A stretch of 17,012 nucleotides of DNA from an uncultured Christensenella sp. (GCA_949294585.1 CASFHZ010000047.1:1-17012); one strand, 5' to 3'; shown: positions 45 through 17,012, numbered from the stretch's first letter. Numbers and translations: made by a program. The notes: generated by a model from the letters alone, not told the origin.

Positions 45-3000
45 CTATTTAATTTTCATTCTCTTTCTTAGAAGAATAAATAGAATTGTTAGTCCAACAA
101 CTACAACTGATACAACAACAATTACAATAATTGAAACTGTGTTTAGTGGTTCATTTTTTATAACTCTGTATGAGTATAACAATTTTCCACTTTCTGAATA
201 TAGTTGAATATAATATGTGTTTGCATTTTCTAATGAGATTTGATAACTTGGGTTAATTGTCCCTTGTTCAAGTAGGTCACTGCTTATGTGCAAATCACTG
301 TAACCCGTTATTTTTAATACGCAATCACCAACATCTTCAATTAAATCACTTGTGTTAAATGAAACAATGATAGGTGAGGTTGTTGCTTTATTTTCTGCTA
401 TTGAAACAGATATTGGAGCAGTTGTGTTGTTTATCCAGAAACTGAATGTAAATTCTTGATTAAATTCATTCCCTGTATTAATTGTAACTGTGTATCTTCC
501 AGCACCTGTTAATGCATCGTATATTGATATTAAGAAATTCTTTAAATATGGTTTTAGTGAAGGTGAACCATCACTGTTTTGAACTGTTTTATATGTTAAA
601 TTACCCATATTTTCATTTGTCAATTGACTTGTTATGTCTTCATCGTTTTTGATTATTTTTGTTACATAATAATCAGCATATTCAGAAAACTCAAAAGCCC
701 ATCTTGATTCATTAGGTCTTATAATTAAGAAATAGGTTGGTTCTTCATTTATTTTTGTTACATTTCCATCAACTGTTACAGAAGCACTAAACCAAACTTT
801 GTATAGTCCTGTTTCTGTAAACAAGTAACTTCTGTTGTCACTGTCAATTGAAGGGGTGTAAGCAACACCATTTCTAAGAGCAGAAAGTTTTGGCTGAGCA
901 TTAGAATCATAGTATTTTGATGTTGAACTTGGAATATTAATTCTAACCTCACTGTCATACACTGCATTGTTTATTGGAGATTCCCCATTAACTGTGAATA
1001 TAACACTTCTTAGATATCTAATTGTGTAGGTACTATTTGATGAATCAAACATATGAACATTGCCAGCCAAATCACTAAATGTTAAATAGTATGTTCCAGA
1101 TGTTGTTAGAGTTATTATTGTTAAGTCATTGCTTATTTCTGTTTTTGGAGTGTATATGGTTTGATTATCACCAAAGTAAATTGTTACATTAACTTTGTTT
1201 TCTGGAATACCATAATAAGACTTCCAAGCAATGCGTTTATATGAAGAAGTGTTTTCCTCAATGCTAACAACAAATGATGACATTGTGCCACTTAGTGCTG
1301 TTCGTGTACCTTCGTTTGTGTAGTGTGAATAATTGGACAATATATTGTTTGTGTATGGAACAACAGTAATTGCAATTGTCCTTGTAAAGTAAGTGTTTGA
1401 ACCCACATCGTTTCCAACATTTGTTAGGTAATAGATATATGTTGTGTAACCATTAACAACAACAGGTGAAGGAACTGGTTCTTTTATGCCTTGTTCGGTG
1501 TTGTATAAAATTTCGAACTCTGTTGTGTTTAAAATATAGTGTGTTTGTATTGAATTTGTTAAATTGCCTTCGGTGTAGGTGAAAGAACTACCTGTTGCTT
1601 CTGCATAATATGTTTCACCATTAACTTTGTAAACAACTTTATAGAAATCTTCATCGTTGTCAGATATTGTAAAGTCTAGGTATGTGTCATATTGACTATC
1701 TGTGAACAAATTTGTGTATTTTATTATTAATGTATATGTTGCTGGGTTAGAAACAACTTTTCCAGAAGATATTTGTTCAATAGTGCAATCTTCATATTGA
1801 AGGAATACAGAGCAATTAAATCTTCCAACATCTTGTCTGAATGTTATTTTTATTTCATTGCCATACATTGTGCCTTTGTCGAACAAACCATTTTGGTTGT
1901 CGTTTTCTATTCCATAAAGTGTAATGTTTGGAATAATGTTGTAGGTTACAAAATTGATTGTTCTGTATGGTAAGCCCGAACTTATGTTTTCAATTGCTTC
2001 ATAAATATCAAGTTTAAAGAATATTTCTCCACCAATAATTCCTTCTGCCATATCTTGCTCTGCTTCGTACATAACAATTGTATAAACAACAGAATCGCCT
2101 GTTGGAATTAAAAGTTTTCCATAACCAGAAGCATTAAATGCATTAATTCCTGATTGTTTTGACAAATCAAATAGTTGAGAAGTGTATGATGTTGTTACTG
2201 TTAAAATAACATTATCTTTTGCACTGTTGTATTTAAACCTTATTTCTTTTGTTGAGTAATAATATTGATTTCCGTTTTCATATGTTTCAATAATGTCAAC
2301 ACTGCTGTACATTTCATTATCTATTTTTTCTGAGCCATAAATGTTTGTTATTGGATATGTGTCCGAGAAGTTATCCGTTACGATGTATTTATAAAATCTG
2401 TTTGGTGTAGGGGAGTTGACAATTATTTTTAGGTAGGTGCCTCCCATATAGTTTACATAACTTGAAGAAATTAAACTTGTGTTAACCAAATTTTGATTTG
2501 GTGTTTTAAAATATGTGTCCGAATTGTTTGAATATATTATTTCTTCTGTGTATGAGTTATCTCCATTTTTTATAAATTGAGTGATTTTTACATCAACTGC
2601 ATAAATGAGTGCATCGGATTCTGAACTTGAACTTGGGATTTTAATTAAAATACCTTCTTGATTTGAATATGTTGATGTTGAACTTGTGTGAATAACAGAA
2701 AGTGAAGTATTTAGAACAGATGCAGAAAGTGTTATTGTGTTATAGAATGGAACAAGTCCAATTACTATATTTTGCTTTTGACTATTTGCTAAAAGTGTTG
2801 CAAATTCTGTTAAATCAACTGCACTTTTTGTTGGGTTTGTTGGGTCATAAGTTGTAAGGTTATAATATTTGCTATTTGAATATGGCGTTTTTAAATATGA
2901 AGTGCCATTTACTGTTATTCTATTCCAATCAAATCCCATCATATCAACTTTTGTTAGTTGCATCGAACTCTTTGCAAATATGTCAATATTAGAATTTAAT

Positions 3001-6000
3001 TGATTATAGAAAATGTAATTTTGTTCATTGTTGTTTAGGTATTGAATAGGTGACAGGTTTGTGTCGGCAAGGGCATTTACATTTGTTAGGTATATTGTGT
3101 AAATGGTTATGTTGCCAGCCAAATCTTTTTCAACAATTTCAATATATTTGTTGTAACTATTTTGGTTGCTTAACAGTTCTGTTAATTTCATTTCATCTAA
3201 TGTGTCAAAATTATTAGTTGAATTTTCCACTGCACTTGGTGATGTTTCTTGTGTGTAGATATCATTGTATTTGGTGTTTACAATATTTCCATTAACTGTT
3301 GTTTCAAAAAATCTGTAAAGAATTGTGTAAGCATCTCCGTTTAAACTTGATGTTAAATCAATCAAATCTCTAATGTTGCTTGCATCAACGGAATAAGCAT
3401 AGTATTTATAAAGTCCAGAAGCAACAGAAGTGTTGTATTTTTGTTGTACATTTCTTAAAAGATTTTCATTTATTCCCGTTAAAGAAACCAATGTGTTTAT
3501 ATTTTTTGTTGGAGCAACTGTGTCAACAACAATTGTTCTTGTTGTTTTAAATTTTCCTGCATTATAATCTGATTCTTTTCCCTCAAATTGCATTGTTATT
3601 GAAATAACTGAATCATTATTGTATGCACCAATATCTGTTAAACTTAAATCAACATAATTATATCTATCATTTGTTTGAATAGAATCGGGATTTATTGTTT
3701 TTGATTCGCCACCATTAACAGAATAGGTTATGGCTGATTTATTGATTATTGACATAAACTCGTTTGAAGAATCTGTCCAAGCAAGTCTTATTGTTTCTTG
3801 ATTTGTGTAATAGTTGTTATTTGCGTATTTTAACTCTTCATTGTTTGTTGGGTTTAAAACTTCAAAAGATGGTTCTTCCTCTGTTATTCTAAACATAAAA
3901 CTAAATGAGTTTGCACCATATGGCAAATAGCCTTGTTCAATTGTAACTTTGTAATAACCAATTTCGGTGAATGTTATTCCCGATTTTTCTGGTTCATCAT
4001 AGAATTTTAGGTAACCGTTAGAACCAACAGAGCTATAATAGATTTTTGAAGGTTGGTCTATGTTTGAAAGTTCAAAACTATATCTAATTTCTGCATTTAA
4101 TGCATATGATTGAATAACACTGTTGCTAACATCTGATGGGTTATATGAGTTAATACTGTTTTCTGTGTTAAATGTTCCACCATCTGTTAATGAATATCCA
4201 TATTTAACAACTGGAATGTAAACGAAAACAGGAAGTTTGTTTGTTTCAAGAATTACTGTGTTTTCTGCTGAGTTGTTGCTTGCAATGTATATGTCCTCAA
4301 AAAACATTTTGTTGTCTTCTTCAAGAACTTGAATCTTAATTGATTCTCCAACATAACTATATGTGCTTGAACTTTCATCAACAACAACAGGTGAGGTTAT
4401 TATTCCGTTTCTGTCAACTATAAATGTTAATGTTCTTATCATATAGTCCAAACTTCCACTAACTTTGTTTTGCGTTCCTGTCATATTGCAGTATGTTCTT
4501 GTTATTGTATATTTTCCTGCTTTTGTTTGATAGGAGTTTGTTTTTGGATTGTACTCTTTGTTTATTTCCCAAATATACATACTATTTTCTTGTGTTAGTG
4601 ATTTGTTTTCATTTGGATTGCTTCTTGAATAAATTGTATATTCTTCGCTAGATTCAACAAATTGATATGTGTATGCAGAACTTGTATCATTTGTTATGTT
4701 TTTGCTTGCAAATTCGCTAAACTTATAAGTTATTGATTCAACTTCAATTATTCCTTCTTCTGGAACAGGATTAAACATTAATTTAAGAATTTCATTGCTG
4801 TCTTTTAATGTGTTAATTGTTGTTGGAATATAGAATTTATCTTTTTTAGTGTAATTTGTTTCAAGGTCAATTGATGCTTCTGGATTATATGCATCTTGAC
4901 TTAAATAGGTTTGTTGATTGTTTTTTGTGTAAATTAATTCGGTTAGTGATGCATCAAAAGATATTTTTAAACTATGTGTTCCTGAATAATTTTTTAGATA
5001 GTTATTAACTGATATTTCATCTTGACCTAATATTGTTTTTGTGTTTACTGAATCTCTTATGTAGAAATTGTATTCATTTTCTTGCTTGTCGTTAATAACA
5101 TAAGAATAATTGTTTTCTTCTGTTCCTTGAATAAATTTACTAACACCGTTTATTGAAAGCAAGACATTTGTGTTTATCTCTGATATAGTAAAGCAGGTGT
5201 TAACTGTGTTTATTGACATTGTTGTGAAGTATTTACTAAAAATGTCCGTTGTGTCAAAAACATTTTTTAACCATTCATCTGCAATATTGAAATTTCCACC
5301 TGCATATGATAGATTATTGAATTTTATAACTTTATATCTACCCCAAGAAACAGTTACATCAGATGATAATATATTAAGTTCACTTGGTTCAACATATTCT
5401 CCATTAACTTCTTGTAATATTTTTGCACTTGTTGTGTCTATTATAAACGAAAAGTATTGTTCATTGCCAGCACTATCTTTTATTCTAAACACATACATTC
5501 CTGCCTCTGTTAAAACATTTGTTGATGGAATATAGTTAAAATCTTTTGAGTTTTGATAGGTTACACTTGTTAGTGTAGTGTTGTTATAATCAAAATAGTA
5601 TTCAACAGGAACAGCATCATAACTGTAATATTGTTTTAACACTGTTGAAGTAAAGTTTGTTGATGTGTCCATAACAAGTGGAATGAATTTGTATTCTGCA
5701 ACAATTTCACTGCCACTTGCTTTGTTGTTCCAAGAAACAGCAACTGCTTGGTTTGTCCAAAAATCTATTTCGTTGTTTCTTGTGTAGTAGTTAGAGTTTT
5801 CAAGTTTTGATACAGCAAATATTTGTATGTTCTCTATATTTATATTATCAATTGTGAATGTTGAAGAGTAACTTCTTGAAAGGTTTTTGCCAAAGTACAT
5901 TGTAACAATATATCTTCCATTTTGTGTTGCAGTAAATTCTTCGTTTGAATTTATTGTTTGAACTTCAACATAATTTCCTGAATAATTGTTTTGCAAATAA

Positions 6001-7562
6001 ACAACCAATTTTGTTTTTGCATTAAAGGTAGATGTAGATGGCTCATCTTTTTTTATAATAACACTTTGATTTGTGTAAGCACCATCAAGAAGAACAGTGT
6101 TATCTTGTGTTTTTATAGACATTTGAGCAGTTTCTTTTGTCAATTCAAAAACAAACCATTGACTAAACAAATGCTCTTCTTCATCATCGCCAATTAATGA
6201 AGTTGGAACAATATCTGTGCTTCCTGTTAGTGATGAGTAGAATTTATAAACAACTTTAACTATGTAAATTCCAGAATCAGTTATTGGTCTGTTGTCATAA
6301 GATTGTTTTGCTGGGAGATTGTCAACAGTGTATTCATTGTTTTCAAGTTTAACTGGGTCAAGTTGCCAATATCCACTTTGGGTGTCAACAACAGTACTAT
6401 TTTCAGAATTAAATATTTCAACATTATATCTAAATTGAACAGGTGCTTGATTTGTTTGTTGTATGCTTAAAGATTTATCACTTATTTTTGCCAAAATATT
6501 GGTTAAATTTGTTTCTTCTGTGTTGTTTAGTGATGTGTGATAACCATTAGTAAGAAAACTTATGTCTGTGTATTCATCATCAATAACTCCGTTTGTGTAA
6601 GTTTTAAATTCTTTTAAATCAGATGTTTCTGAATCTGAATAATACAGTTGATATCCAAAAATTTCCAACATATCAGTTCTTTTGCTGATGTTTGTGCTTG
6701 ATGGGTTAAGGTTATCAACATTATTTCCATAGGTGTAAATGAAATTGTATTTTATTGTGTAAGTGCCAAGGTCATTAAAAATTATTGAAACAAGGTTGTT
6801 GTCTGGATTTTCAACAATCGACACCAAGTTGTTGTCGGTGTTAAGGTTTGTTCCATCAAACCATATATTTTGAGTTTTTGTAACTTTTTGGAATGTTTTT
6901 GTAATTTCAACAGTTATGTTCTTTTTGTTTATTGTTAGGGTAGGTAATAAATTATTTGAGTTGCTATTTTGATAGTTATATTGAAAAACACGGTCGTATA
7001 GTATTGATGAGTTTGAAGGTGAAAAGGCATTGTCGAACTGATATTGAACATAAGTGCCGTTGTAGTAATTTGTTTCCATCAAAACATAATAGGTGTAGTC
7101 AAAAGATTTTGTTGTTTGACTTCCGTTTTCTGTAACAGTGTAATCAAAATGTAGTTCATATTTTCCACAAGGATTTGCACCATTGTCAAAAGTTGATTCA
7201 ATAAGAAGTGAAATTCCGTTATATGTAATTTTTATTCCATTTTGCTCAAGCACTTCATTTGTGTAAGAAGAGCCATTAAATGAAAAATAATATGAAATAT
7301 GCACAATTGGATTTTCACCACTTATGTTTGATTGTGCGTGAAAATCTGCCTTAACAGTTTGTGAATTTGTTACATATGCAACTTCACCATTGCTGATTGA
7401 GGCAATGGCAGACTGTCCCGAATATTGAGTAACAGTAAAATACTCACATTCTGTTTCTGCAAAAACTTCATTTTGCTTTTCAGAAAAAGAACACACGCCA
7501 CAAATGGCAAGTGATAAAATAGCAAAAATAAATAATTTTTTAAATAAACTAAATTTTTTCAT
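45..7562 (-). CDS. Giant surface protein of about 2505 aa, rich in Asn, Thr, Ser and Tyr. It has an N-terminal signal peptide and a C-terminal transmembrane anchor with a KR-rich tail. Putative adhesin or cell-surface protein.
   Basis: The minus-strand ORF is uninterrupted. The maximal ORF starts at 7598, but the ATG at 7562 gives a canonical signal peptide (MKKFSLFKKLFIFAILSLAICGVCS, with a VFA/E cleavage-like site) and is preceded by a GGGGTG Shine-Dalgarno-like stretch. The C-terminus is VSIIVIVVVSVVVVGLTILFILLRKRMKIK, hydrophobic followed by positive residues. There is no LPXTG motif and no obvious internal tandem repeats. The composition is typical of beta-rich surface proteins. Confidence 0.9.
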   Translation of the reverse strand: MKKFSLFKKLFIFAILSLAICGVCSFSEKQNEVFAETECEYFTVTQYSGQSAIASISNGEVAYVTNSQTVKADFHAQSNISGENPIVHISYYFSFNGSSYTNEVLEQNGIKITYNGISLLIESTFDNGANPCGKYELHFDYTVTENGSQTTKSFDYTYYVLMETNYYNGTYVQYQFDNAFSPSNSSILYDRVFQYNYQNSNSNNLLPTLTINKKNITVEITKTFQKVTKTQNIWFDGTNLNTDNNLVSIVENPDNNLVSIIFNDLGTYTIKYNFIYTYGNNVDNLNPSSTNISKRTDMLEIFGYQLYYSDSETSDLKEFKTYTNGVIDDEYTDISFLTNGYHTSLNNTEETNLTNILAKISDKSLSIQQTNQAPVQFRYNVEIFNSENSTVVDTQSGYWQLDPVKLENNEYTVDNLPAKQSYDNRPITDSGIYIVKVVYKFYSSLTGSTDIVPTSLIGDDEEEHLFSQWFVFELTKETAQMSIKTQDNTVLLDGAYTNQSVIIKKDEPSTSTFNAKTKLVVYLQNNYSGNYVEVQTINSNEEFTATQNGRYIVTMYFGKNLSRSYSSTFTIDNINIENIQIFAVSKLENSNYYTRNNEIDFWTNQAVAVSWNNKASGSEIVAEYKFIPLVMDTSTNFTSTVLKQYYSYDAVPVEYYFDYNNTTLTSVTYQNSKDFNYIPSTNVLTEAGMYVFRIKDSAGNEQYFSFIIDTTSAKILQEVNGEYVEPSELNILSSDVTVSWGRYKVIKFNNLSYAGGNFNIADEWLKNVFDTTDIFSKYFTTMSINTVNTCFTISEINTNVLLSINGVSKFIQGTEENNYSYVINDKQENEYNFYIRDSVNTKTILGQDEISVNNYLKNYSGTHSLKISFDASLTELIYTKNNQQTYLSQDAYNPEASIDLETNYTKKDKFYIPTTINTLKDSNEILKLMFNPVPEEGIIEVESITYKFSEFASKNITNDTSSAYTYQFVESSEEYTIYSRSNPNENKSLTQENSMYIWEINKEYNPKTNSYQTKAGKYTITRTYCNMTGTQNKVSGSLDYMIRTLTFIVDRNGIITSPVVVDESSSTYSYVGESIKIQVLEEDNKMFFEDIYIASNNSAENTVILETNKLPVFVYIPVVKYGYSLTDGGTFNTENSINSYNPSDVSNSVIQSYALNAEIRYSFELSNIDQPSKIYYSSVGSNGYLKFYDEPEKSGITFTEIGYYKVTIEQGYLPYGANSFSFMFRITEEEPSFEVLNPTNNEELKYANNNYYTNQETIRLAWTDSSNEFMSIINKSAITYSVNGGESKTINPDSIQTNDRYNYVDLSLTDIGAYNNDSVISITMQFEGKESDYNAGKFKTTRTIVVDTVAPTKNINTLVSLTGINENLLRNVQQKYNTSVASGLYKYYAYSVDASNIRDLIDLTSSLNGDAYTILYRFFETTVNGNIVNTKYNDIYTQETSPSAVENSTNNFDTLDEMKLTELLSNQNSYNKYIEIVEKDLAGNITIYTIYLTNVNALADTNLSPIQYLNNNEQNYIFYNQLNSNIDIFAKSSMQLTKVDMMGFDWNRITVNGTSYLKTPYSNSKYYNLTTYDPTNPTKSAVDLTEFATLLANSQKQNIVIGLVPFYNTITLSASVLNTSLSVIHTSSTSTYSNQEGILIKIPSSSSESDALIYAVDVKITQFIKNGDNSYTEEIIYSNNSDTYFKTPNQNLVNTSLISSSYVNYMGGTYLKIIVNSPTPNRFYKYIVTDNFSDTYPITNIYGSEKIDNEMYSSVDIIETYENGNQYYYSTKEIRFKYNSAKDNVILTVTTSYTSQLFDLSKQSGINAFNASGYGKLLIPTGDSVVYTIVMYEAEQDMAEGIIGGEIFFKLDIYEAIENISSGLPYRTINFVTYNIIPNITLYGIENDNQNGLFDKGTMYGNEIKITFRQDVGRFNCSVFLQYEDCTIEQISSGKVVSNPATYTLIIKYTNLFTDSQYDTYLDFTISDNDEDFYKVVYKVNGETYYAEATGSSFTYTEGNLTNSIQTHYILNTTEFEILYNTEQGIKEPVPSPVVVNGYTTYIYYLTNVGNDVGSNTYFTRTIAITVVPYTNNILSNYSHYTNEGTRTALSGTMSSFVVSIEENTSSYKRIAWKSYYGIPENKVNVTIYFGDNQTIYTPKTEISNDLTIITLTTSGTYYLTFSDLAGNVHMFDSSNSTYTIRYLRSVIFTVNGESPINNAVYDSEVRINIPSSTSKYYDSNAQPKLSALRNGVAYTPSIDSDNRSYLFTETGLYKVWFSASVTVDGNVTKINEEPTYFLIIRPNESRWAFEFSEYADYYVTKIIKNDEDITSQLTNENMGNLTYKTVQNSDGSPSLKPYLKNFLISIYDALTGAGRYTVTINTGNEFNQEFTFSFWINNTTAPISVSIAENKATTSPIIVSFNTSDLIEDVGDCVLKITGYSDLHISSDLLEQGTINPSYQISLENANTYYIQLYSESGKLLYSYRVIKNEPLNTVSIIVIVVVSVVVVGLTILFILLRKRMKIK

Positions 7563-7722
7563 AAAACACCCCATAATAATCATTAAAAATATTAGCATAT
7601 TTTTTGTGTTTTTACAAATATATTGTGTATATTTATTTAATAATTATTTTTATATATAACATAAATAATAAAAAATTAATAATATTAGTTATAATAAATA
7701 AAAAAACTATTATTATTGCAAC

Positions 7723-7786
7723 AAAAAAAAGAATATATCAAAGGTGAGATTAACCTCAAAAGTGATATATTCTTTTCATTTTTTTT
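7723..7786 (-). terminator. Rho-independent terminator between the T4CP gene and the giant gene. The hairpin is flanked by A8 and T8 runs, so it could act in both directions.
   Basis: The sequence is AAAAGAATATATCA (7727-7740), a 22-nt loop, then TGATATATTCTTTT (7763-7776), forming a perfect 14-bp AT-rich stem. It is preceded by AAAAAAAA (7723-7730) and followed by TTTTTTTT (7779-7786). It lies 5 bp downstream of the T4CP stop codon (7791-7793) on the minus strand. Confidence 0.5.
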
Positions 7787-7790
7787 ATTA

Positions 7791-9758
7791 TTAAAAATCA
7801 AAATCATCAAAAATATTTTTCTTGAATATTTTGGCATTTCTTTTCTTAATATCATAAAATATTTTTCTTTCATCTAAATGCTTTGATGGAGCATATTCTT
7901 CAGATGCTTTTCTTTGGTCCAAAACAGGATTTTTGAAGTATTGTGTCATTTTTGTCTTAATTGGAGGTCTGCCATATATTTTTACAATATTAACATCAAA
8001 TGGCAATTGTCCCAACTCATATGGTTCAATTAATGGCCTTGTAACAATTTGTGTTCCAACAGTTTTGGATTTATCTTTGTCATTTTTCTCAGAACGATTT
8101 TCTGAAACATTCTGAGTTTTTAATGTAACTTCGCCACACATTTTAGAAAATTCTTCTCTTGTTTTTTGGTCCTCTGTTCCAATAAATATTTGAATATTAC
8201 AGTTTCCTTTAATTGTGTCTGCAACTTCTTTTGTGTATTTATTGTCCAATTGACTATATGATTGAATTGCCAATTCAAAGAAAATTCTTCTTGAACGAGC
8301 AACTGTTATTATTGTGTCCATCTTTTCAATTTTTGGCAAGTTTGCAAACTCATCAAGCAAGAAGTAAACAGGTCGGTCCAATTGCAAATTTGGTTTTTGT
8401 GATGCTGTGTCAATTAATGTTTTATACATTTGAGAAATACACATTGTTGCAATGCTGTGTCTGCTTTCTTTTTCATCTGGAACTTTTATAAACAACACTG
8501 TTGGCTTTTCTGTGAAGTCTTCAAACGAAACATCTGTTGCACTTGTGCAATAACAAATACCCATATCTTGAAAAACTGCAATTTTTGGTTGCAAAACACC
8601 AAGGTAAGAACGGGTTGTGTTTGGTGCGTTGTTAACAACAGTGCTTGTTAGGGCAGGTACTTTTGACAACACATCTCTTCCACTTGTGTATTGTTGCAAG
8701 GTTTTCATCATATTGTCACCATCGGTGTCACGATGTGTTGCAATTTTTACAAGGTTATAAAAATTAAACTTTTCTCTTGTCATTCCAAGTTCTGGGTCCA
8801 AACTATCTTCAAGCATAGCAAGCATAAGTCCAAACAAAAAGTCCTGAGCACCTCTTTCCCAGCCTTGGTCGGTTTTACTTTCAACTGTTACAATTGTGCT
8901 TGCAATTTCACGAAGTTCGTTTTCAGCCTCATTGATTAAAGATTGTTTTTTTGCTTCAAGGTCTTGCATTAATCTATCTTTTGTTGGGTATGCAATTTTG
9001 TTGAAGCCATACCACACATTTCCATATGTGTCAGATATAATTCTGTAACCACCAACATCTTTTGGGTTTGAATTTTTGTAAACTTTAACTTCTTCTTCAA
9101 GATGGTGTGCTCTTGTGTACATAACAAATGCGTGGTCCATTGGATTCCATCTTGTTGAAGAATATGGATTACGAAGGTCAATTGTGATTATTCTGTAACC
9201 CTCTTCACGAAGTTGAATAGAGTGGTTATTATACAGTTCGCCTTTTGGGTCGGTTATAACCATACAAGGTTTTTCTGCCGAGTGAGCATATACTCTTATT
9301 GCTGGGTCCAAAACAAAAGTTGTTTTACCAGAACCTGTTGTTCCAATAATAAGAGTGTGAATAGGGTTATACATATTGATGTACATTTTGCCATTTTTGT
9401 ATAAACTTCTAATCATAACTCCAGTTTTTTTAAGTTTTGGAAGTTGGTTAAATGTTGTTGGCATATATGCCTGGTCAGTTAATAACTCTTGTTCAGAAAC
9501 AAAACGAGCTTCATAGTGCTGAGCCATTTTTTCACCAGTTTGAGTTTTTCCCGTAAAACCTTCAGTGTCCGTTGTTGTGCTTTTTGATGATGAAACCATA
9601 TACAAAATAACAGCAAGAATACCAAGTCCAAAAATAACGAGAGCTGTTGTGCTACTTAGTGCTTGCACAAAATCAATCTCTTCAATTAACATTGATGCAA
9701 CAACACCAACGATGTATGCAATTAAAGCAAAAATTATGGTGTTTCTAAATTTTTTCAT
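7791..9758 (-). CDS. Type IV secretion coupling protein (T4CP), TraG/TraD/VirD4 family, about 655 aa.
   Basis: There are two N-terminal TM helices (IIFALIAYIVGVVASMLI and ALVIFGLGILAVILYMV). Then comes Walker A (IIGTTGSGKTT), the family-typical ITDPKGE motif, and Walker B (VYFLLDEFANLPKI). The ATG at 9758 is preceded by GGAGG with a 5-nt spacer. The longer ORF back to 9785 would begin at a GTG with no RBS. These are established VirD4/TraG signatures. Confidence 0.9.
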   Translation of the reverse strand: MKKFRNTIIFALIAYIVGVVASMLIEEIDFVQALSSTTALVIFGLGILAVILYMVSSSKSTTTDTEGFTGKTQTGEKMAQHYEARFVSEQELLTDQAYMPTTFNQLPKLKKTGVMIRSLYKNGKMYINMYNPIHTLIIGTTGSGKTTFVLDPAIRVYAHSAEKPCMVITDPKGELYNNHSIQLREEGYRIITIDLRNPYSSTRWNPMDHAFVMYTRAHHLEEEVKVYKNSNPKDVGGYRIISDTYGNVWYGFNKIAYPTKDRLMQDLEAKKQSLINEAENELREIASTIVTVESKTDQGWERGAQDFLFGLMLAMLEDSLDPELGMTREKFNFYNLVKIATHRDTDGDNMMKTLQQYTSGRDVLSKVPALTSTVVNNAPNTTRSYLGVLQPKIAVFQDMGICYCTSATDVSFEDFTEKPTVLFIKVPDEKESRHSIATMCISQMYKTLIDTASQKPNLQLDRPVYFLLDEFANLPKIEKMDTIITVARSRRIFFELAIQSYSQLDNKYTKEVADTIKGNCNIQIFIGTEDQKTREEFSKMCGEVTLKTQNVSENRSEKNDKDKSKTVGTQIVTRPLIEPYELGQLPFDVNIVKIYGRPPIKTKMTQYFKNPVLDQRKASEEYAPSKHLDERKIFYDIKKRNAKIFKKNIFDDFDF

Positions 9759-10023
9759 TAATTCCTCCAAAATTAAATTTAACACACAGTGCTATTTTTT
9801 CTTTTACTTTTTTATTGTACTTAATATAAAAATATAAGTCAATTAAAAAATACTTTTTCGTTGCTAGTAAATTATTAATAAGAAACTAAGTAATTGTATT
9901 TTTTTCTATGTTAATATTATAATCACAGTGCAATAAATTTATTTTTTATTTAAAATGTTTTTTTACAATTTAATATTTTTTAAATAAAAATAAAAAAAAT
10001 TAAAAAAAATATTAAAAAATGTT

Positions 10024-10052: not shown

Positions 10053-10127
10053 AAAGCGTAAATCAGTTTGCAATATGAATAATGTTTGTTTTTTTGCAAA
10101 TAAATAAAATAAATTTTGGAGGAAATT

Positions 10128-10502
10128 ATGAACGTATTTTTGACAAAAGTTGCTACATATTTAATGGGATTTAGTGGCATTCTTGCAGACGGCGACTGGA
10201 AAGACAGATTGGAAGGAACTCAATGGGCTTGGGTTGTTGACATTGTCAGCGCAATTGATACACTATTGTATCCATTACTAATTGTAGTTGGTGCCGCAGG
10301 AACAATTTATGCCGTTGTTATTGGTGTAAATATGGCAAGAGCTGATTCAACAGAAAAAAGAGAAGAAGCAAAGAAGAGATTAATTAATGTAATTGTTGGT
10401 CTTGCAATAATTATAGCTTTAATATTGTTCTTCAAATTATTCATATCTGTTATTGTTCCAGCATTCGTTCCAGAATCAACAGAAACAACACCAGTTGCTT
10501 AA
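10128..10502 (+). CDS. Small (124 aa) two-TM membrane protein. Putative T4SS component, VirB3/TcpE-like or VirB2-like.
   Basis: The ATG at 10128 is preceded by GGAGG (10118-10122) with a 5-nt spacer. The track's 10116 start is a TTG. Two hydrophobic helices (LLYPLLIVVGAAGTIYAVVIGV and LINVIVGLAIIIALILFFKLFISVIVPAFV) are separated by a short charged loop. It sits immediately upstream of the VirB6-like gene. The functional assignment rests on context only. Confidence 0.75.
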   Translation: MNVFLTKVATYLMGFSGILADGDWKDRLEGTQWAWVVDIVSAIDTLLYPLLIVVGAAGTIYAVVIGVNMARADSTEKREEAKKRLINVIVGLAIIIALILFFKLFISVIVPAFVPESTETTPVA

Positions 10503-10699: not shown

Positions 10700-12943
10700 A
10701 TGGATTTTGGTGTATGGGTTATGGATTTGATTTACATTATACCCAAGTTATTATATTTTTTGTGTTCTATGTGCACAATGGTTATTGATTTGTTGCAATT
10801 GCTTTTCAGAAAATTTGCTGGACTTGATACATATTACATAAATGGAAGCGAAGTTTCTGGTGAAATAATAGATGGTGCAACTCAACAAGGTTCTGGTGAT
10901 ATGATTCTTCAAATTATAAACAAAACCTTTTTGGATACAGAAAATTCTGTTATTGCAGTTGCATTTTGGAGTATAATTTTGCTGGCTGCAATTTTGCTTG
11001 TTATAACAACAGTGGCAGCAATAATCAAAAACGAATATTCACCTGATAAGGAAAAGAAAAATTCAAAAACTGGAATTGTTATAAACTTCTTTAAGGCAAT
11101 ATTTTCATTTGCAATAATTCCAATTGCTTGCTATTTTGGAGTTTGGTTTGGCAATATTGTTCTGTTTGCAGTTGATTCTGCAATTTCACCAACTGTTACA
11201 GCAATTTCCGAAACAGAAGAAATAAATGATAAAATTGTCTTTGATGAATCCACGGGTTCACCTGCATATTATTGCTTTATGGGTGAGGCCGTTCCTGCAA
11301 AATTCACACCACTAAGTGGCTACATATCAAAAGTTTGTTTATACAATGGAAGCAGAGTTAGAGTTGATGATACTTTCTATGAAACTGTAATACTAGCCGA
11401 TGATGTGAATAACACAACAACAAACTTTGGAATGTTCAATAGTGATGCACTTCAAACAAAAGAAGATGTTGCCAGTGCAATTGATAATGTATTTATGATA
11501 AATGCAAGGTTAAAAACTCCACAAAAACTAAATCACATTAATCAAGACCCGGGATATATTTTTATCCAAAATGGCACGGTGGAATACTTTGACAAAACAG
11601 ATGTTGGTTTGGTGTCGTACTACTATAATCTTTGGTACTATAACTTCCCAATTGCAATTGTGTTTATCATTGTAATTGGAAAACTTATGGCCGAGTTTGT
11701 GTTTGGACTTATGACTCGTTTGATAACAGTGCTTGCACTTTTGTTAATTGGACCAATCACAATGTCATTTATGCCACTAGATGGTGGAAGTGCATTAAGC
11801 GATTGGAAAAAAGAATTTATTGTTAGAGTAATGTCATCATACATTTTAATACTTGCAATGAATATATTTTATCTAATACTTCCTGTTTTGGACACAATAA
11901 CTTTCTTTGGGACAAGTTCAGGACTAGCTTGGGTGGATTACATTATAAAAACATTGTTTGTAATTGCAGGTTTAATGTCGGTTAAAACAATAATCAAATT
12001 GTTTAATGGAATAATAAAGGTTGACAAAGCAAAGAGTTCAATTCTTGACGATGGTGGTGCAGCAATGTCGGGCACTTTGGGAATGGCAAAGAAAACAACT
12101 GGTATGGCTATTTCTGGTGCAAGGGCAATTGGAGGCTTAGGTCTTGCAGGAGTTGGATTGGCAGGAATGGCAATTGGTGGAGCAACAGGTGGAATAGGCA
12201 AAGGAGTTAACTACTATCAACGAAGAAAAGAACAACAAGCACTTAACTCAACAACTGCACACGGAAATGCATCAGATAGTCAACTAAAAGATAATGTAGT
12301 GTTGTTTGCTCAGGACAATATTAAAAATCAAGTACAACAAGATTATGATGCTGAACTTAACAAGAGAAGTATGGAAGCATATAAGAGAGCATATGGTAAC
12401 AATCCAAAAATTTCTTTTGAAGATTATAAAAATGCAAATGTTGAAGGTTCATATAGACAGGCAGAAGATTATTACTATAACGAAATGACACCAGAGGAGA
12501 GGCAAAAAATCAGCATAGGTGACTACACAAAACAAGTTTATGAAAACAGTCAATTTGCAAATACAATGTCATATAAGAAATGGAAGGCAATTGGTTATCT
12601 TGATGTAATGCACGATAAAGATTCTTATCAAAATGTTGTGAAAGGTCTTTCAGATTATAAAGAAAATCGAGAATCTCAAATTCAGTCAGACATATACAAT
12701 GCAATGCAAACTGGTGTTGCAAACAATCAACTAGAAAGAGATGCAATTGATGACTACAACAACCTAGTTCAACAAAGATCAAAAGCAAGAACAGATTCTT
12801 CAGAGCACGCAAAAAAACTGCACGAACTTGAAGAAAAGGACAAAAACAGAAGATGGAGAATGGCAAGAATGGGTTCAAAAGCAGTACAAAGTGGTATGGG
12901 TAATGTGTTTAGATCTGTAAATGGTATAGCTGGTAAGAAGTAA
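10700..12943 (+). CDS. Polytopic membrane protein (747 aa) with VirB6/TrbL-like, TcpH-like topology. It has a C-terminal glycine-rich segment and a charged, helical tail.
   Basis: There are about 7 predicted TM segments, with a roughly 150-aa hydrophilic loop after the third. After the last TM comes GMAISGARAIGGLGLAGVGLAGMAIGGATGGIGKG, then a roughly 250-aa domain rich in K, E, Q and D. The gene is adjacent to the T4CP gene. There is no diagnostic motif, so the family call is inferred from topology and context. Confidence 0.8.
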   Translation: MDFGVWVMDLIYIIPKLLYFLCSMCTMVIDLLQLLFRKFAGLDTYYINGSEVSGEIIDGATQQGSGDMILQIINKTFLDTENSVIAVAFWSIILLAAILLVITTVAAIIKNEYSPDKEKKNSKTGIVINFFKAIFSFAIIPIACYFGVWFGNIVLFAVDSAISPTVTAISETEEINDKIVFDESTGSPAYYCFMGEAVPAKFTPLSGYISKVCLYNGSRVRVDDTFYETVILADDVNNTTTNFGMFNSDALQTKEDVASAIDNVFMINARLKTPQKLNHINQDPGYIFIQNGTVEYFDKTDVGLVSYYYNLWYYNFPIAIVFIIVIGKLMAEFVFGLMTRLITVLALLLIGPITMSFMPLDGGSALSDWKKEFIVRVMSSYILILAMNIFYLILPVLDTITFFGTSSGLAWVDYIIKTLFVIAGLMSVKTIIKLFNGIIKVDKAKSSILDDGGAAMSGTLGMAKKTTGMAISGARAIGGLGLAGVGLAGMAIGGATGGIGKGVNYYQRRKEQQALNSTTAHGNASDSQLKDNVVLFAQDNIKNQVQQDYDAELNKRSMEAYKRAYGNNPKISFEDYKNANVEGSYRQAEDYYYNEMTPEERQKISIGDYTKQVYENSQFANTMSYKKWKAIGYLDVMHDKDSYQNVVKGLSDYKENRESQIQSDIYNAMQTGVANNQLERDAIDDYNNLVQQRSKARTDSSEHAKKLHELEEKDKNRRWRMARMGSKAVQSGMGNVFRSVNGIAGKK

Positions 12944-15332: not shown

Positions 15333-15923
15333 ATGGAAGAATATATAACAAACAATAAAAAAGAATATTTGGATTTGGTTAAAAATAACATAAAAAGGGA
15401 AGGAATTGATAATTTAATAGATTGGTTGCAAAAAACTGATTTCTTTACTGCTCCTGCTTCAACAAAATACCATTCTTGCTATGAAGGAGGTTTGTGCAGA
15501 CACAGTTTAAATGTTTATAATAGATTTGTAAAAAACCTAAAAAACGAGTTTGGTGATGAATGGGAAAAACATTGTTCACTGGAAAGTGCAACAATAATTG
15601 CATTATTTCACGATTTGTGCAAAGTAGATTTTTATACTGTTGAAATGAGAAATGTTAAAGAAAATGGTATTTGGGTTCAAAAACCATATTATGCTGTTAA
15701 TGATAAACTTCCATATGGACACGGAGAAAAATCTGTTTATATAACAAGTAGTTTTATAAAACTAACTAGAGATGAAGCAATGAGTATAAATTGGCATATG
15801 GGTGAATACGATGCAAGAGCAAAGGGTGGAGTTAGTTTGTCGGACATTTACTATAAATACCCAGTTGCTTTTCTGTTCCACCTATCAGATAATATGGCTA
15901 CATATCTTGATGAAACAATGTAA
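15333..15923 (+). CDS. HD-domain phosphohydrolase. 196 aa.
   Basis: Metal-binding motifs H..H (YHSCYEGGLCRHSLNV), HD (IIALFHDLCKV) and a downstream D (WHMGEYD) are present. The RBS is strong. Confidence 0.85.
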   Translation: MEEYITNNKKEYLDLVKNNIKREGIDNLIDWLQKTDFFTAPASTKYHSCYEGGLCRHSLNVYNRFVKNLKNEFGDEWEKHCSLESATIIALFHDLCKVDFYTVEMRNVKENGIWVQKPYYAVNDKLPYGHGEKSVYITSSFIKLTRDEAMSINWHMGEYDARAKGGVSLSDIYYKYPVAFLFHLSDNMATYLDETM

Positions 15924-15933
15924 AAATAAAGAT

Positions 15934-15966
15934 AAAAACGCAAACTTTCTTGTTTGCGTTTTTTAT
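15934..15966 (+). terminator. Rho-independent terminator after the HD gene.
   Basis: AAAAACGCAAAC, a TTTCTT loop, then GTTTGCGTTTTTTATT. The 8-bp GC-containing stem is followed by a T-run, 11 bp after the stop codon. Confidence 0.8.
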
Positions 15967-15980
15967 TAAAAAATATTATA

Positions 15981-16042
15981 AAATAAAAAAAATTGTTAAA
16001 TTTGCTTGACAAAACTGGGGGGGGGGGGGGTATTTTTATAAA
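15981..16042 (+). promoter_or_regulatory. Promoter of the LRR surface-protein gene. It has an A-tract UP-like element, a consensus -35 TTGACA (16006-16011), a G14 homopolymer in the spacer, then TATTTT and TATAAA -10 candidates.
   Basis: The region reads AAAATAAAAAAAATTGTTAAATTTGC-TTGACA-AAACT-G14-TATTTTTATAAAT. With 14 Gs, the spacer to TATTTT is 19 nt. At 12 Gs it would be an optimal 17 nt. Confidence 0.5.
16017..16030 (+). repeat. Homopolymeric G14 tract.
   Basis: Fourteen consecutive G (16017-16030) in a window of roughly 28% GC. It sits inside the promoter spacer. Confidence 0.95.
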
Positions 16043-16104
16043 TGAAATGCATTATATAAAAAAGAATGCAGATATTAAAATAAGTAATAAAAATGGGAGG
16101 AGAG

Positions 16105-17012
16105 ATGAAAAGCAAATTAAAGATAGTTGCAATGCTTAGTGCAATGTGTTTTGTTGTTTTTATGCTAACAGTTGGCGTGCTCAGTTTAAAAAATGTTGAT
16201 GTAAATGTTGGTGGAAGCATAAACTATTCAGCAAACGGAGTTATGGCAACAATTTCAAATGGTGTACTTGAAAACAATGCAAGTAATGTAACAGGCAAAA
16301 TGCAAGGGTTTACGGTTGAGTTAAACCAAGATGAAAGTGCAATTCAAAGTGCATTAAACAGTTGGTCAGGTTTAGAGTTGCAATTTAACGAAAACGGTGA
16401 TGATGTAACAATAACATTCAGTGTAACAAACAATCACACAACCGACTATTTGCAAGTTAACATAGAAGTTGATGCAGGCACACCAACAAACGCAACAGTT
16501 GGTGTTAATAGCAACAATAATACCCTATCACCAAGCACAGTTAGTGATGGAAGTAATGCATATACACATGTAATAACATTTCATATAGAGAATACGAACC
16601 TTAATGCAAGCATAAGCAATTTTGCCATAAGTGTTAACTTAACAAAGGGTGTAATACCATTAGAGTCAGATTATTCATACTTAACATTTACTAAAGATGA
16701 ACAATCTCTAACAGCAAGTGTTACAGGTTTTGATAATTCAGTAAGTGAAGTAAATATACCATCAAAAATAAAAGATGATAAAGATGATAATGGAAATGTT
16801 TATACAGTAACAGGTATAGGAAGTCGTGCATTCGAGGATTGCACAAATTTAGCAAGTGTAACAATCCCAGACAGTGTAACAAGTATAAGATATAATGCAT
16901 TCGATGGTTGCAGTGGCTTAACGAGTGTAATAATAGGTAATGGTGTAACAGATATAGAAAGTTCTGCATTCTCTGGTTGCACTAGTTTAACAAGTGTAAC
17001 AATCCCAGACAG
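16105..17012 (+). CDS. Secreted or surface protein with BspA-type leucine-rich repeats. It is 5'-partial, open at the window end, so at least 302 aa.
   Basis: I translated this myself; it is absent from the ORF track because no stop codon falls within the window. It begins MKSKLKIVAMLSAMCFVVFMLTVGVLS, a signal peptide or N-terminal anchor. Then comes a roughly 230-aa N/T/S-rich region. It ends ...GIGSRAFEDCTNLASVTIPDSVTSIRYNAFDGCSGLTSVIIGNGVTDIESSAFSGCTSLTSVTIPD, which is classic BspA/LRR_5 repeats. GGGAGGAG lies 3-4 nt before the ATG. Confidence 0.85.
   Translation, partial: MKSKLKIVAMLSAMCFVVFMLTVGVLSLKNVDVNVGGSINYSANGVMATISNGVLENNASNVTGKMQGFTVELNQDESAIQSALNSWSGLELQFNENGDDVTITFSVTNNHTTDYLQVNIEVDAGTPTNATVGVNSNNNTLSPSTVSDGSNAYTHVITFHIENTNLNASISNFAISVNLTKGVIPLESDYSYLTFTKDEQSLTASVTGFDNSVSEVNIPSKIKDDKDDNGNVYTVTGIGSRAFEDCTNLASVTIPDSVTSIRYNAFDGCSGLTSVIIGNGVTDIESSAFSGCTSLTSVTIPD

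Follow-up and report, generated by a model that had tools for sequence, protein, structure and literature searches.

The vlp genes of Mycoplasma hyorhinis, reportedly a multigene family of surface proteins, are said to carry poly-A tracts in their promoter spacers. A guanine tract occupies the same position in Neisseria meningitidis porA and Treponema pallidum tp0126, where it lies between the -35 and -10 elements and where expression is best at a 17-nt spacer (as summarised in PMC7864442). Poly-G promoters are also present in T. pallidum tprE/G/J and tprL, with length variation measured in vivo, and the slippage of the T. pallidum poly-G has itself been measured (PMC7864442). In Candidatus Mycoplasma girerdii, repeat-based phase variation of BspA-like genes was described from metagenomic data (PMC5476646). 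Phase variation in gut Firmicutes and Clostridia is described mainly as invertible DNA switches, and in the literature consulted repeat-based cases come only from pathogens and Mollicutes. The poly-G promoter-spacer type of switch is well known in pathogens, and it is the host group that is unusual in the present case.

Here we describe a run of 14 guanines ahead of a BspA-like leucine-rich repeat (LRR) gene in a 17,012-nt stretch of DNA with 30.1% GC (hereafter the window). The G14 feature is real and highly non-random. We consider it probable that it is a slipped-strand contingency locus of the porA / tp0126 / vlp type acting through the promoter spacer, and we infer the switching mechanism from the comparisons given below. 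The original prediction of a promoter switch is supported by comparative evidence independent of it, with switching as the behaviour that this evidence suggests.

The G14 tract and its promoter

The homopolymer occupies positions 16017-16030 of the coding strand, inside a 140-nt intergenic region. It alone exceeds 4 nt among the G or C runs of the window, the next-longest being of 4 nt, and about 2e-7 runs of at least 14 nt would be expected; the claim that it is improbable by chance is therefore upheld, while the GC content of about 28% on which that claim was based has to be corrected to the value measured. A perfect -35 hexamer TTGACA (16006-16011, + strand) lies 5 nt 5' of the run, from which it is separated by the non-repeat part of the spacer, AAACT (16012-16016; AAACTT in strains L001 and L002). 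TTGACA occurs 26 times in the window on both strands, and for a given point the probability that one stands 0-8 nt to its 5' side is about 0.007. The hexamer TATTTT (16031-16036), a proximal -10 candidate with 4/6 matches, abuts the 3' side of the run, giving a 19-nt spacer, and is followed by a distal -10-like hexamer, TATAAA (16037-16042), at 25 nt from TTGACA. The run is therefore flanked, as predicted, by a perfect -35 on its 5' side and an AT-rich -10 region on its 3' side, and the spacing arithmetic of the prediction also agrees with ours, the distance to TATTTT being 19 nt at G14, 18 nt at G13 and 17 nt at G12. The -35 hexamer is kept in L004, L210, L208/209, L212/213, L214 and L224, and a -10 directly after the G run is also found in relatives. 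On the 5' side of the -35 there is an UP-element-like A/T-rich region (15966-16005), which contains, by alignment, a stretch AAAAAATTGTTAAATTTGC common to the promoters of the window gene and its paralogue. On the 3' side, a ribosome binding site GGGAGGAG (16095-16102) and the start codon ATG of the LRR gene (16105-16107) were read from the sequence, and the region originally singled out ends on the last base of this codon.

A sigma-70 consensus scan of the whole window returned 96 sites against 97 expected in shuffled sequence, that is, no enrichment in this AT-rich DNA, and the G14 promoter was missed because its spacer is 19 nt long. Since such a scan is uninformative in AT-rich DNA, the assignment of the promoter rests on relatives and not on a consensus match by itself. 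The weakness of the proximal -10 in the window, with its 4/6 matches, counts against a switch. A minus-strand ORF at 15996-16220, in which the tract would be read as poly-Pro, was rejected as spurious, being without conservation in L004.

The gene upstream of the intergenic region (15333-15923, + strand) encodes a 196-aa protein that has no family match and is found in identical form on contigs from three other samples. It is followed by a hairpin terminator at 15934-15963, with the core ACGCAAAC...GTTTGCGT and then TTTTTATT; our terminator scan lists this hairpin on the - strand, and the palindrome and its T-run are readable on the + strand too. This putative terminator insulates the downstream promoter from read-through transcription. 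The position of the terminator bears on whether the tract could be transcribed, as part of a 5'UTR made from an upstream start, and act via RNA or DNA structure (G-quadruplex, R-loop or transcriptional slippage), which we regard as very unlikely. AT-rich -10-like hexamers do occur upstream, at 15970-15985, but the terminator extends as far as 15963 and a good -35 is lacking upstream, while a perfect TTGACA is kept immediately 5' of the tract both in the window and in L004. Moreover, a three-tetrad quadruplex would need a run longer than G14, the leader folds into a structure no better than that of shuffled controls, and Rfam gives no match in the window.

Related promoters, strains and contig ends

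Two close relatives of the N-terminal domain of the LRR gene product were found, P0008 and P0120. The P0008 locus (L004), whose N-terminal domain is 81% identical to that of the window gene, reads TTGACA-GTT-G13-A-TAAAAT at 6960-6988 and then ATAAT, with a spacer of 17 nt, a perfect -35 and a proximal -10 (TAAAAT) with 5/6 matches; its distal hexamer, at 6988-6993, is a perfect TATAAT. Among 213 loci, L004 alone matches the pattern TTGACA, 3-6 nt, at least ten Gs and an AT-rich hexamer. A homopolymer of at least about 8 nt between the -35 and the -10, as in contingency loci, is hence present both in the window (G14) and in L004 (G13), if the -10 is the one that the relatives indicate. The comparison of G14 with G13 is one of paralogues and not of alleles. 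As P0008 is found in a housekeeping context (groES-groEL ... gap), one of the tract-bearing copies lies beside a conjugative-transfer module and the other in a chromosomal housekeeping region, and the poly-G promoter would appear to characterise a small subfamily of genes in this organism. Nucleotide identity between the window and L004 is 75-98% in the sequence coding for the N-terminal domain and about 40-67% in the promoter and 5'UTR. The bases beside the tract differ (AAACT vs GTT on one side, TATTTT vs ATAAAA on the other), therefore a recent copying of the whole promoter is unlikely. By our own arithmetic, the probability that a pure 13-nt run survives such divergence under independent substitution is about 0.6^13, or 1e-3, which argues that the tract is being kept up, whether selection or continual slippage is the cause.

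More distant members of the family have ordinary promoters. L210, which comes from the sample that also yielded L001, has TTGACA-17-TATTAT without a G run, and L208/209 and L212/213 have TTGACA-18-TACAAT, in which ...AAAAAGGG (GGG) stands directly before the -10; L224, L225 and L226 are without a G run. These fixed TTGACA-17/18-TAnnAT promoters probably represent the ancestral state. In another species (P0126, 35% GC), TTGACA-AAAAAGGC-G8-TAAAAT is found with a 16-nt spacer, about 300 nt 5' of the ATG. Across the family, the -10 comes right after the G run and the spacer measures 16-19 nt while the G run varies from 3 to 14 nt. Given that relatives keep the -10 after GGG or a G run, the -10 is expected right after the run, and it is the total spacer length that is conserved; a constant spacer with a variable G run is the pattern that would be expected of the spacer of a working promoter.

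The G8 of the P0126 locus is identical in five independent assemblies (L214-L218) and thus stable at the consensus level. L220, otherwise the same as the L215-L218 alleles over 1170 nt, has G7 at the very end of the contig, and this G8 vs G7 is the only length difference observed at one and the same locus, in the other species and at a contig end. The constancy of the G8 in the five assemblies would fit a G run that is merely a fixed, non-switching spacer suiting this promoter family, or a mutational expansion without a regulatory role, expression in either case being uniform from cell to cell, and so would the window tract, which is known from assembled sequence at one length, G14. We nonetheless hold either to be unlikely, since tract lengths differ between the window and L004, 19 nt would be a poor fixed design, and the tract is pure while its flanks diverge. 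In addition, G/C homopolymers of 13-14 nt are highly slippage-prone in other bacteria.

A different placement of the -10 has to be considered, in which the true element is the distal TATAAA/TATAAT (window 16037-16042, L004 6988-6993) and the tract is outside the core promoter, on its 5' side. Such a promoter would work without TTGACA, or with TTGACA only at tract lengths that bring the distal hexamer within 16-18 nt, namely G5-G7 in the window and G7-G9 in L004; either both observed alleles would be off, or the tract would modulate the distance to an upstream element or activator in the style of Bordetella fim or T. pallidum tprL. The sequence offers some ground for this: no non-coding stretch is better conserved between these two loci than a 13-nt block TATAAWTGAAATG, which starts 6 nt past the tract in both, the TATAAA of the window matches the TATAAT of L004 within this block, the L004 hexamer is a perfect consensus, and poly-G promoters that do not act via spacing are known, e.g. 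tprL (PMC7864442). The best-conserved downstream hexamer, 25 and 22 nt away from the -35, is indeed a misfit to a simple spacing model. On the other hand, with spacers of 22-25 nt either allele would need 5-8 slippage steps to reach an on state, the TG extended -10 motif is absent, and in the relatives the G run is directly followed by the -10 at spacers of 16-18 nt, the TAAAAT of L004 standing at exactly 17 nt. We therefore think it rather unlikely that the distal hexamer is the true -10, and in what follows the proximal hexamer is preferred; the distal ones could nevertheless give a second permissive range at short tracts.

Several observations on the other species and on the nearest relatives may be recorded here. 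In L214 (2320-2370) and L226 (about 60-110), both family members from other species, a direct repeat RTGACGGCA is present twice with 11-nt spacing, followed by TACAAT, some 100-150 nt 5' of the ATG, and it looks like a candidate activator-dependent promoter. In L214 the G8 promoter lies further upstream, and so may or may not be the one that drives the family gene. Just 5' of the G8 promoter, L214 holds 400 nt (1780-2190) that are GC-richer by eye, with smpB nearby in L215; a convincing ORF, a tRNA or tmRNA and an Rfam match were looked for in this segment and none was found. In L006, which has the closest GroEL relative of L004 (64% identity), a 336-aa ORF (7783-8793) contains a G9 (7792-7800) at codons 4-6, as ATG TCT TAC GGG GGG GGG, and this G9 could be a frameshift switch in coding sequence.

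The window, L001 and L002 represent three strains, distinguished by SNPs and obtained from different samples or assemblies, and all have a G run at the site. L001 and L002 read ...TTGACAAAACTT and then G7, and both contigs end within the tract. The L005 contig (P0120) begins at the first base after an L004-type tract, and four Logan contigs (L219-L222) begin at the tract, three of them exactly 10 nt before the -10 regardless of the G count and the fourth inside the run. Illumina errors at homopolymers and GGC motifs also break contigs at long G runs. We rejected contig ends as a proof of length heterogeneity, since they fit a systematic sequencing failure at GGC or G runs equally well, and the exact assembled length of the tract is itself uncertain. 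The tract being the point at which several contigs stop or begin could also suggest an artefact of sequencing or assembly, such as the poly-G tails of two-colour Illumina chemistry or a chimeric join. This is hardly credible, as the three strains have the run at one and the same site, the L004 contig spans the paralogous tract, five assemblies span the tract of the other species, and every one of these runs has a -35 before it, a -10 after it and an intact gene further downstream; we discarded it on the strength of independent strains, loci and assemblies.

The organism of the window is very poorly sampled, which limited comparison across samples. No match to an exact 22-mer from the conserved coding sequence of the leader was found in genome, metagenome or viral contigs. 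A degenerate 22-mer of the upstream part of the promoter was searched in metagenome contigs and set aside, the matches listed being unrelated AT-rich promoters. A stretch of 25 bases in L184, AAATTGTTAAATTTGCTTGACAAAA, is identical to one in the upstream half of the window promoter; it was rejected as a homologue, for it belongs to an unrelated organism of 39% GC and to an rpmF promoter (reverse strand, 8325-8410). The match being due to chance or convergence, short identities between strong AT-rich promoters are no evidence of homology. As for the host, the GroEL of L004 has at most 64% identity to any GTDB species representative, and its top matches are MAGs of uncultured Clostridia, Christensenellales-like bacteria or Oscillospiraceae, several of them labelled as coming from gut samples of sheep, cattle, goat, rabbit or human.

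The LRR protein, its family and its genomic setting

The 5' part of the LRR gene (16105-16650, + strand) encodes a membrane/signal helix at aa 2-27 and a beta-sandwich N-terminal domain at aa ~30-182, and BspA-type LRRs (Pfam LRR_5, PF13306) follow at aa 234-301 (16804-17012, + strand), the gene running past the window end. The LRR_5 match (E 2.7e-19; 69.7 bits against a Pfam gathering cut-off of 27.7) and the N-terminal helix bear out the prediction of a BspA-type LRR gene downstream of the tract. In the AlphaFold model of the N-terminal domain (pLDDT 87.6), the membrane helix of aa 2-27 is followed by the beta-sandwich. Products of contingency loci act at the surface or in host interaction, and the LRR_5 repeats together with the modelled helix and beta-sandwich indicate a product of this kind. 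By eye, no lipobox was recognised, the sole Cys (C15) lying mid-helix in the context SAMC, which is atypical for a lipobox.

Residues 1-182 have no Pfam or NCBIfam match, and a Foldseek search of the domain against the PDB gave nothing significant, the top match being FimA (E 3e-3, TM ~0.3). A search with the full 302-aa protein was swamped by the LRR repeats and a word-index search with the N-terminal domain gave only the two relatives named above, so that the family became visible only with an exhaustive HMMER search. This recovered about 441 protein clusters at 50% identity, in which the domain is almost always N-terminal and is followed by variable C-terminal or passenger parts, for total lengths of 133-3201 aa. 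Residues 1-182 are common to the window gene, P0008 and P0120 (66-81% identity) and the divergence beyond them is complete. In L005, an abrupt change from low-GC family sequence to unrelated high-GC sequence occurs at about 500-1335; this looks like an assembly chimera, and therefore the C-terminus of P0120 is not real.

The window carries a conjugative-transfer module, with the LRR gene at its edge. The module includes a VirD4/TraG-like coupling protein (7791-9785, - strand; ~28% identity to a Clostridium plasmid VirD4), a T4SS pilin-like protein (10116-10502) and a 747-aa protein (10700-12943) that resembles Mycoplasma ICE membrane proteins weakly and at a score below the cut-off. For the last of these, the similarity is to the MMCAP2_0566 and Mbov_0396 conjugal-transfer families, even though the host looks Clostridia-like. 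Also in the module, next to the coupling protein, is a giant ORF of 2517 aa (45-7598, - strand); it has no significant Pfam domain, and its product may act in conjugation, at the surface or in transfer. At its left end (1-20) the window has a 20-nt palindrome ACCTTATCAATTGATAAGGT; this end lies within about 3 nt of the end of an independent 16,028-nt contig (ERZ17292902 k87_12532147), and may be a repeat or element boundary at which assemblies break. At the other side, a contig from sample SRR14679161 (L003) is the same as the window up to the terminator of the 196-aa gene and then diverges (window 15966-15975). Because this divergence comes right after the terminator, the promoter and the LRR gene behave as an exchangeable, variable unit and together appear to be a cargo cassette.

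The proposed switch and its known counterparts

We propose that the G14 run makes up most of the spacer in a promoter of the sigma-A (sigma-70) type, and that this promoter would drive the gene of a membrane-anchored BspA-like LRR surface protein. During replication, slipped-strand mispairing would add or remove G residues in the run, and each change of length would alter both the distance from TTGACA to the -10 and their helical phase. In the window, G11-G13 would bring TATTTT into register (spacers of 16-18 nt) and the promoter would be active, whereas at the observed G14, with 19 nt, no hexamer is in register and the promoter would be weak or off. In L004, TAAAAT would be in register at G12-G14 (spacers of 16-18 nt), a range that includes the observed G13 with its 17 nt. 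The spacing arithmetic thus predicts that the window allele is low or off and one slippage step away from a permissive 18 nt, and that the L004 allele is on. The population would be a mix of cells displaying and not displaying the LRR protein. The tract, its place, its recurrence in a paralogue and in further strains and the type of gene product are seen directly, whereas the hypermutability of the tract, the position of the transcription start site and the effect of the tract on transcription are inferred.

The device shows signs of being family-level and of being carried beside a mobile element. It is possible, and we put it forward tentatively, that this lineage evolved an expandable poly-G spacer from an ordinary GGG-TAnAAT promoter, and that the spacer individually switches members of an undescribed helix plus beta-sandwich surface family with variable passengers (BspA LRRs), one copy of which stands beside a conjugative module. 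If this is true, contingency-locus biology would extend to the BspA-like adhesins of a commensal-type lineage that is uncultured. Clostridia, for which mostly site-specific DNA inversion has been described, would then also have repeat-based phase variation of promoters. It would also explain the systematic breakage of such loci in metagenome assemblies, and a ready-made phase-variable adhesin cassette could spread horizontally. The copy beside the conjugation genes suggests that switchable adhesins can be mobile cargo. The combination of TTGACA, a short linker, at least eight Gs and an AT-rich hexamer provides a searchable signature for variable surface antigens in MAGs.

With porA and tp0126, the locus shares a G tract in the spacer of a sigma-70-type promoter ahead of a surface or outer-membrane protein gene. 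It differs from them in its host, which is uncultured and low-GC Bacillota/Clostridia-like, in its tract, which is longer (13-14 nt) and makes up nearly the whole spacer, and in its product, a membrane-anchored BspA-like LRR protein. The T. pallidum tpr genes are also paralogous, encode putative surface proteins and have poly-G in their promoters; however, the tprL tract overlaps the -10 region without changing the -35/-10 spacing, whereas the geometry here is of the spacing type, and in tprE/G/J only tracts of up to 8 G are permissive. Candidatus M. girerdii offers the likeness of BspA-like LRR surface-protein genes under slippage-prone repeats, but there the repeats are mostly dinucleotides in coding sequence and act by frameshift, in contrast to a promoter homopolymer that would act on transcription. 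The vlp system resembles the present one in that the paralogues have a common 5' cassette (promoter, leader and N-terminal region) with variable C-terminal parts, and in that each promoter spacer has its own homopolymer, so that the copies could switch independently. It differs in its use of poly-A where poly-G is found here, in that our proteins are not lipoproteins as far as can be recognised by eye, and in that here only two or three members are known to bear a tract and one of the copies lies beside a conjugative-transfer module.
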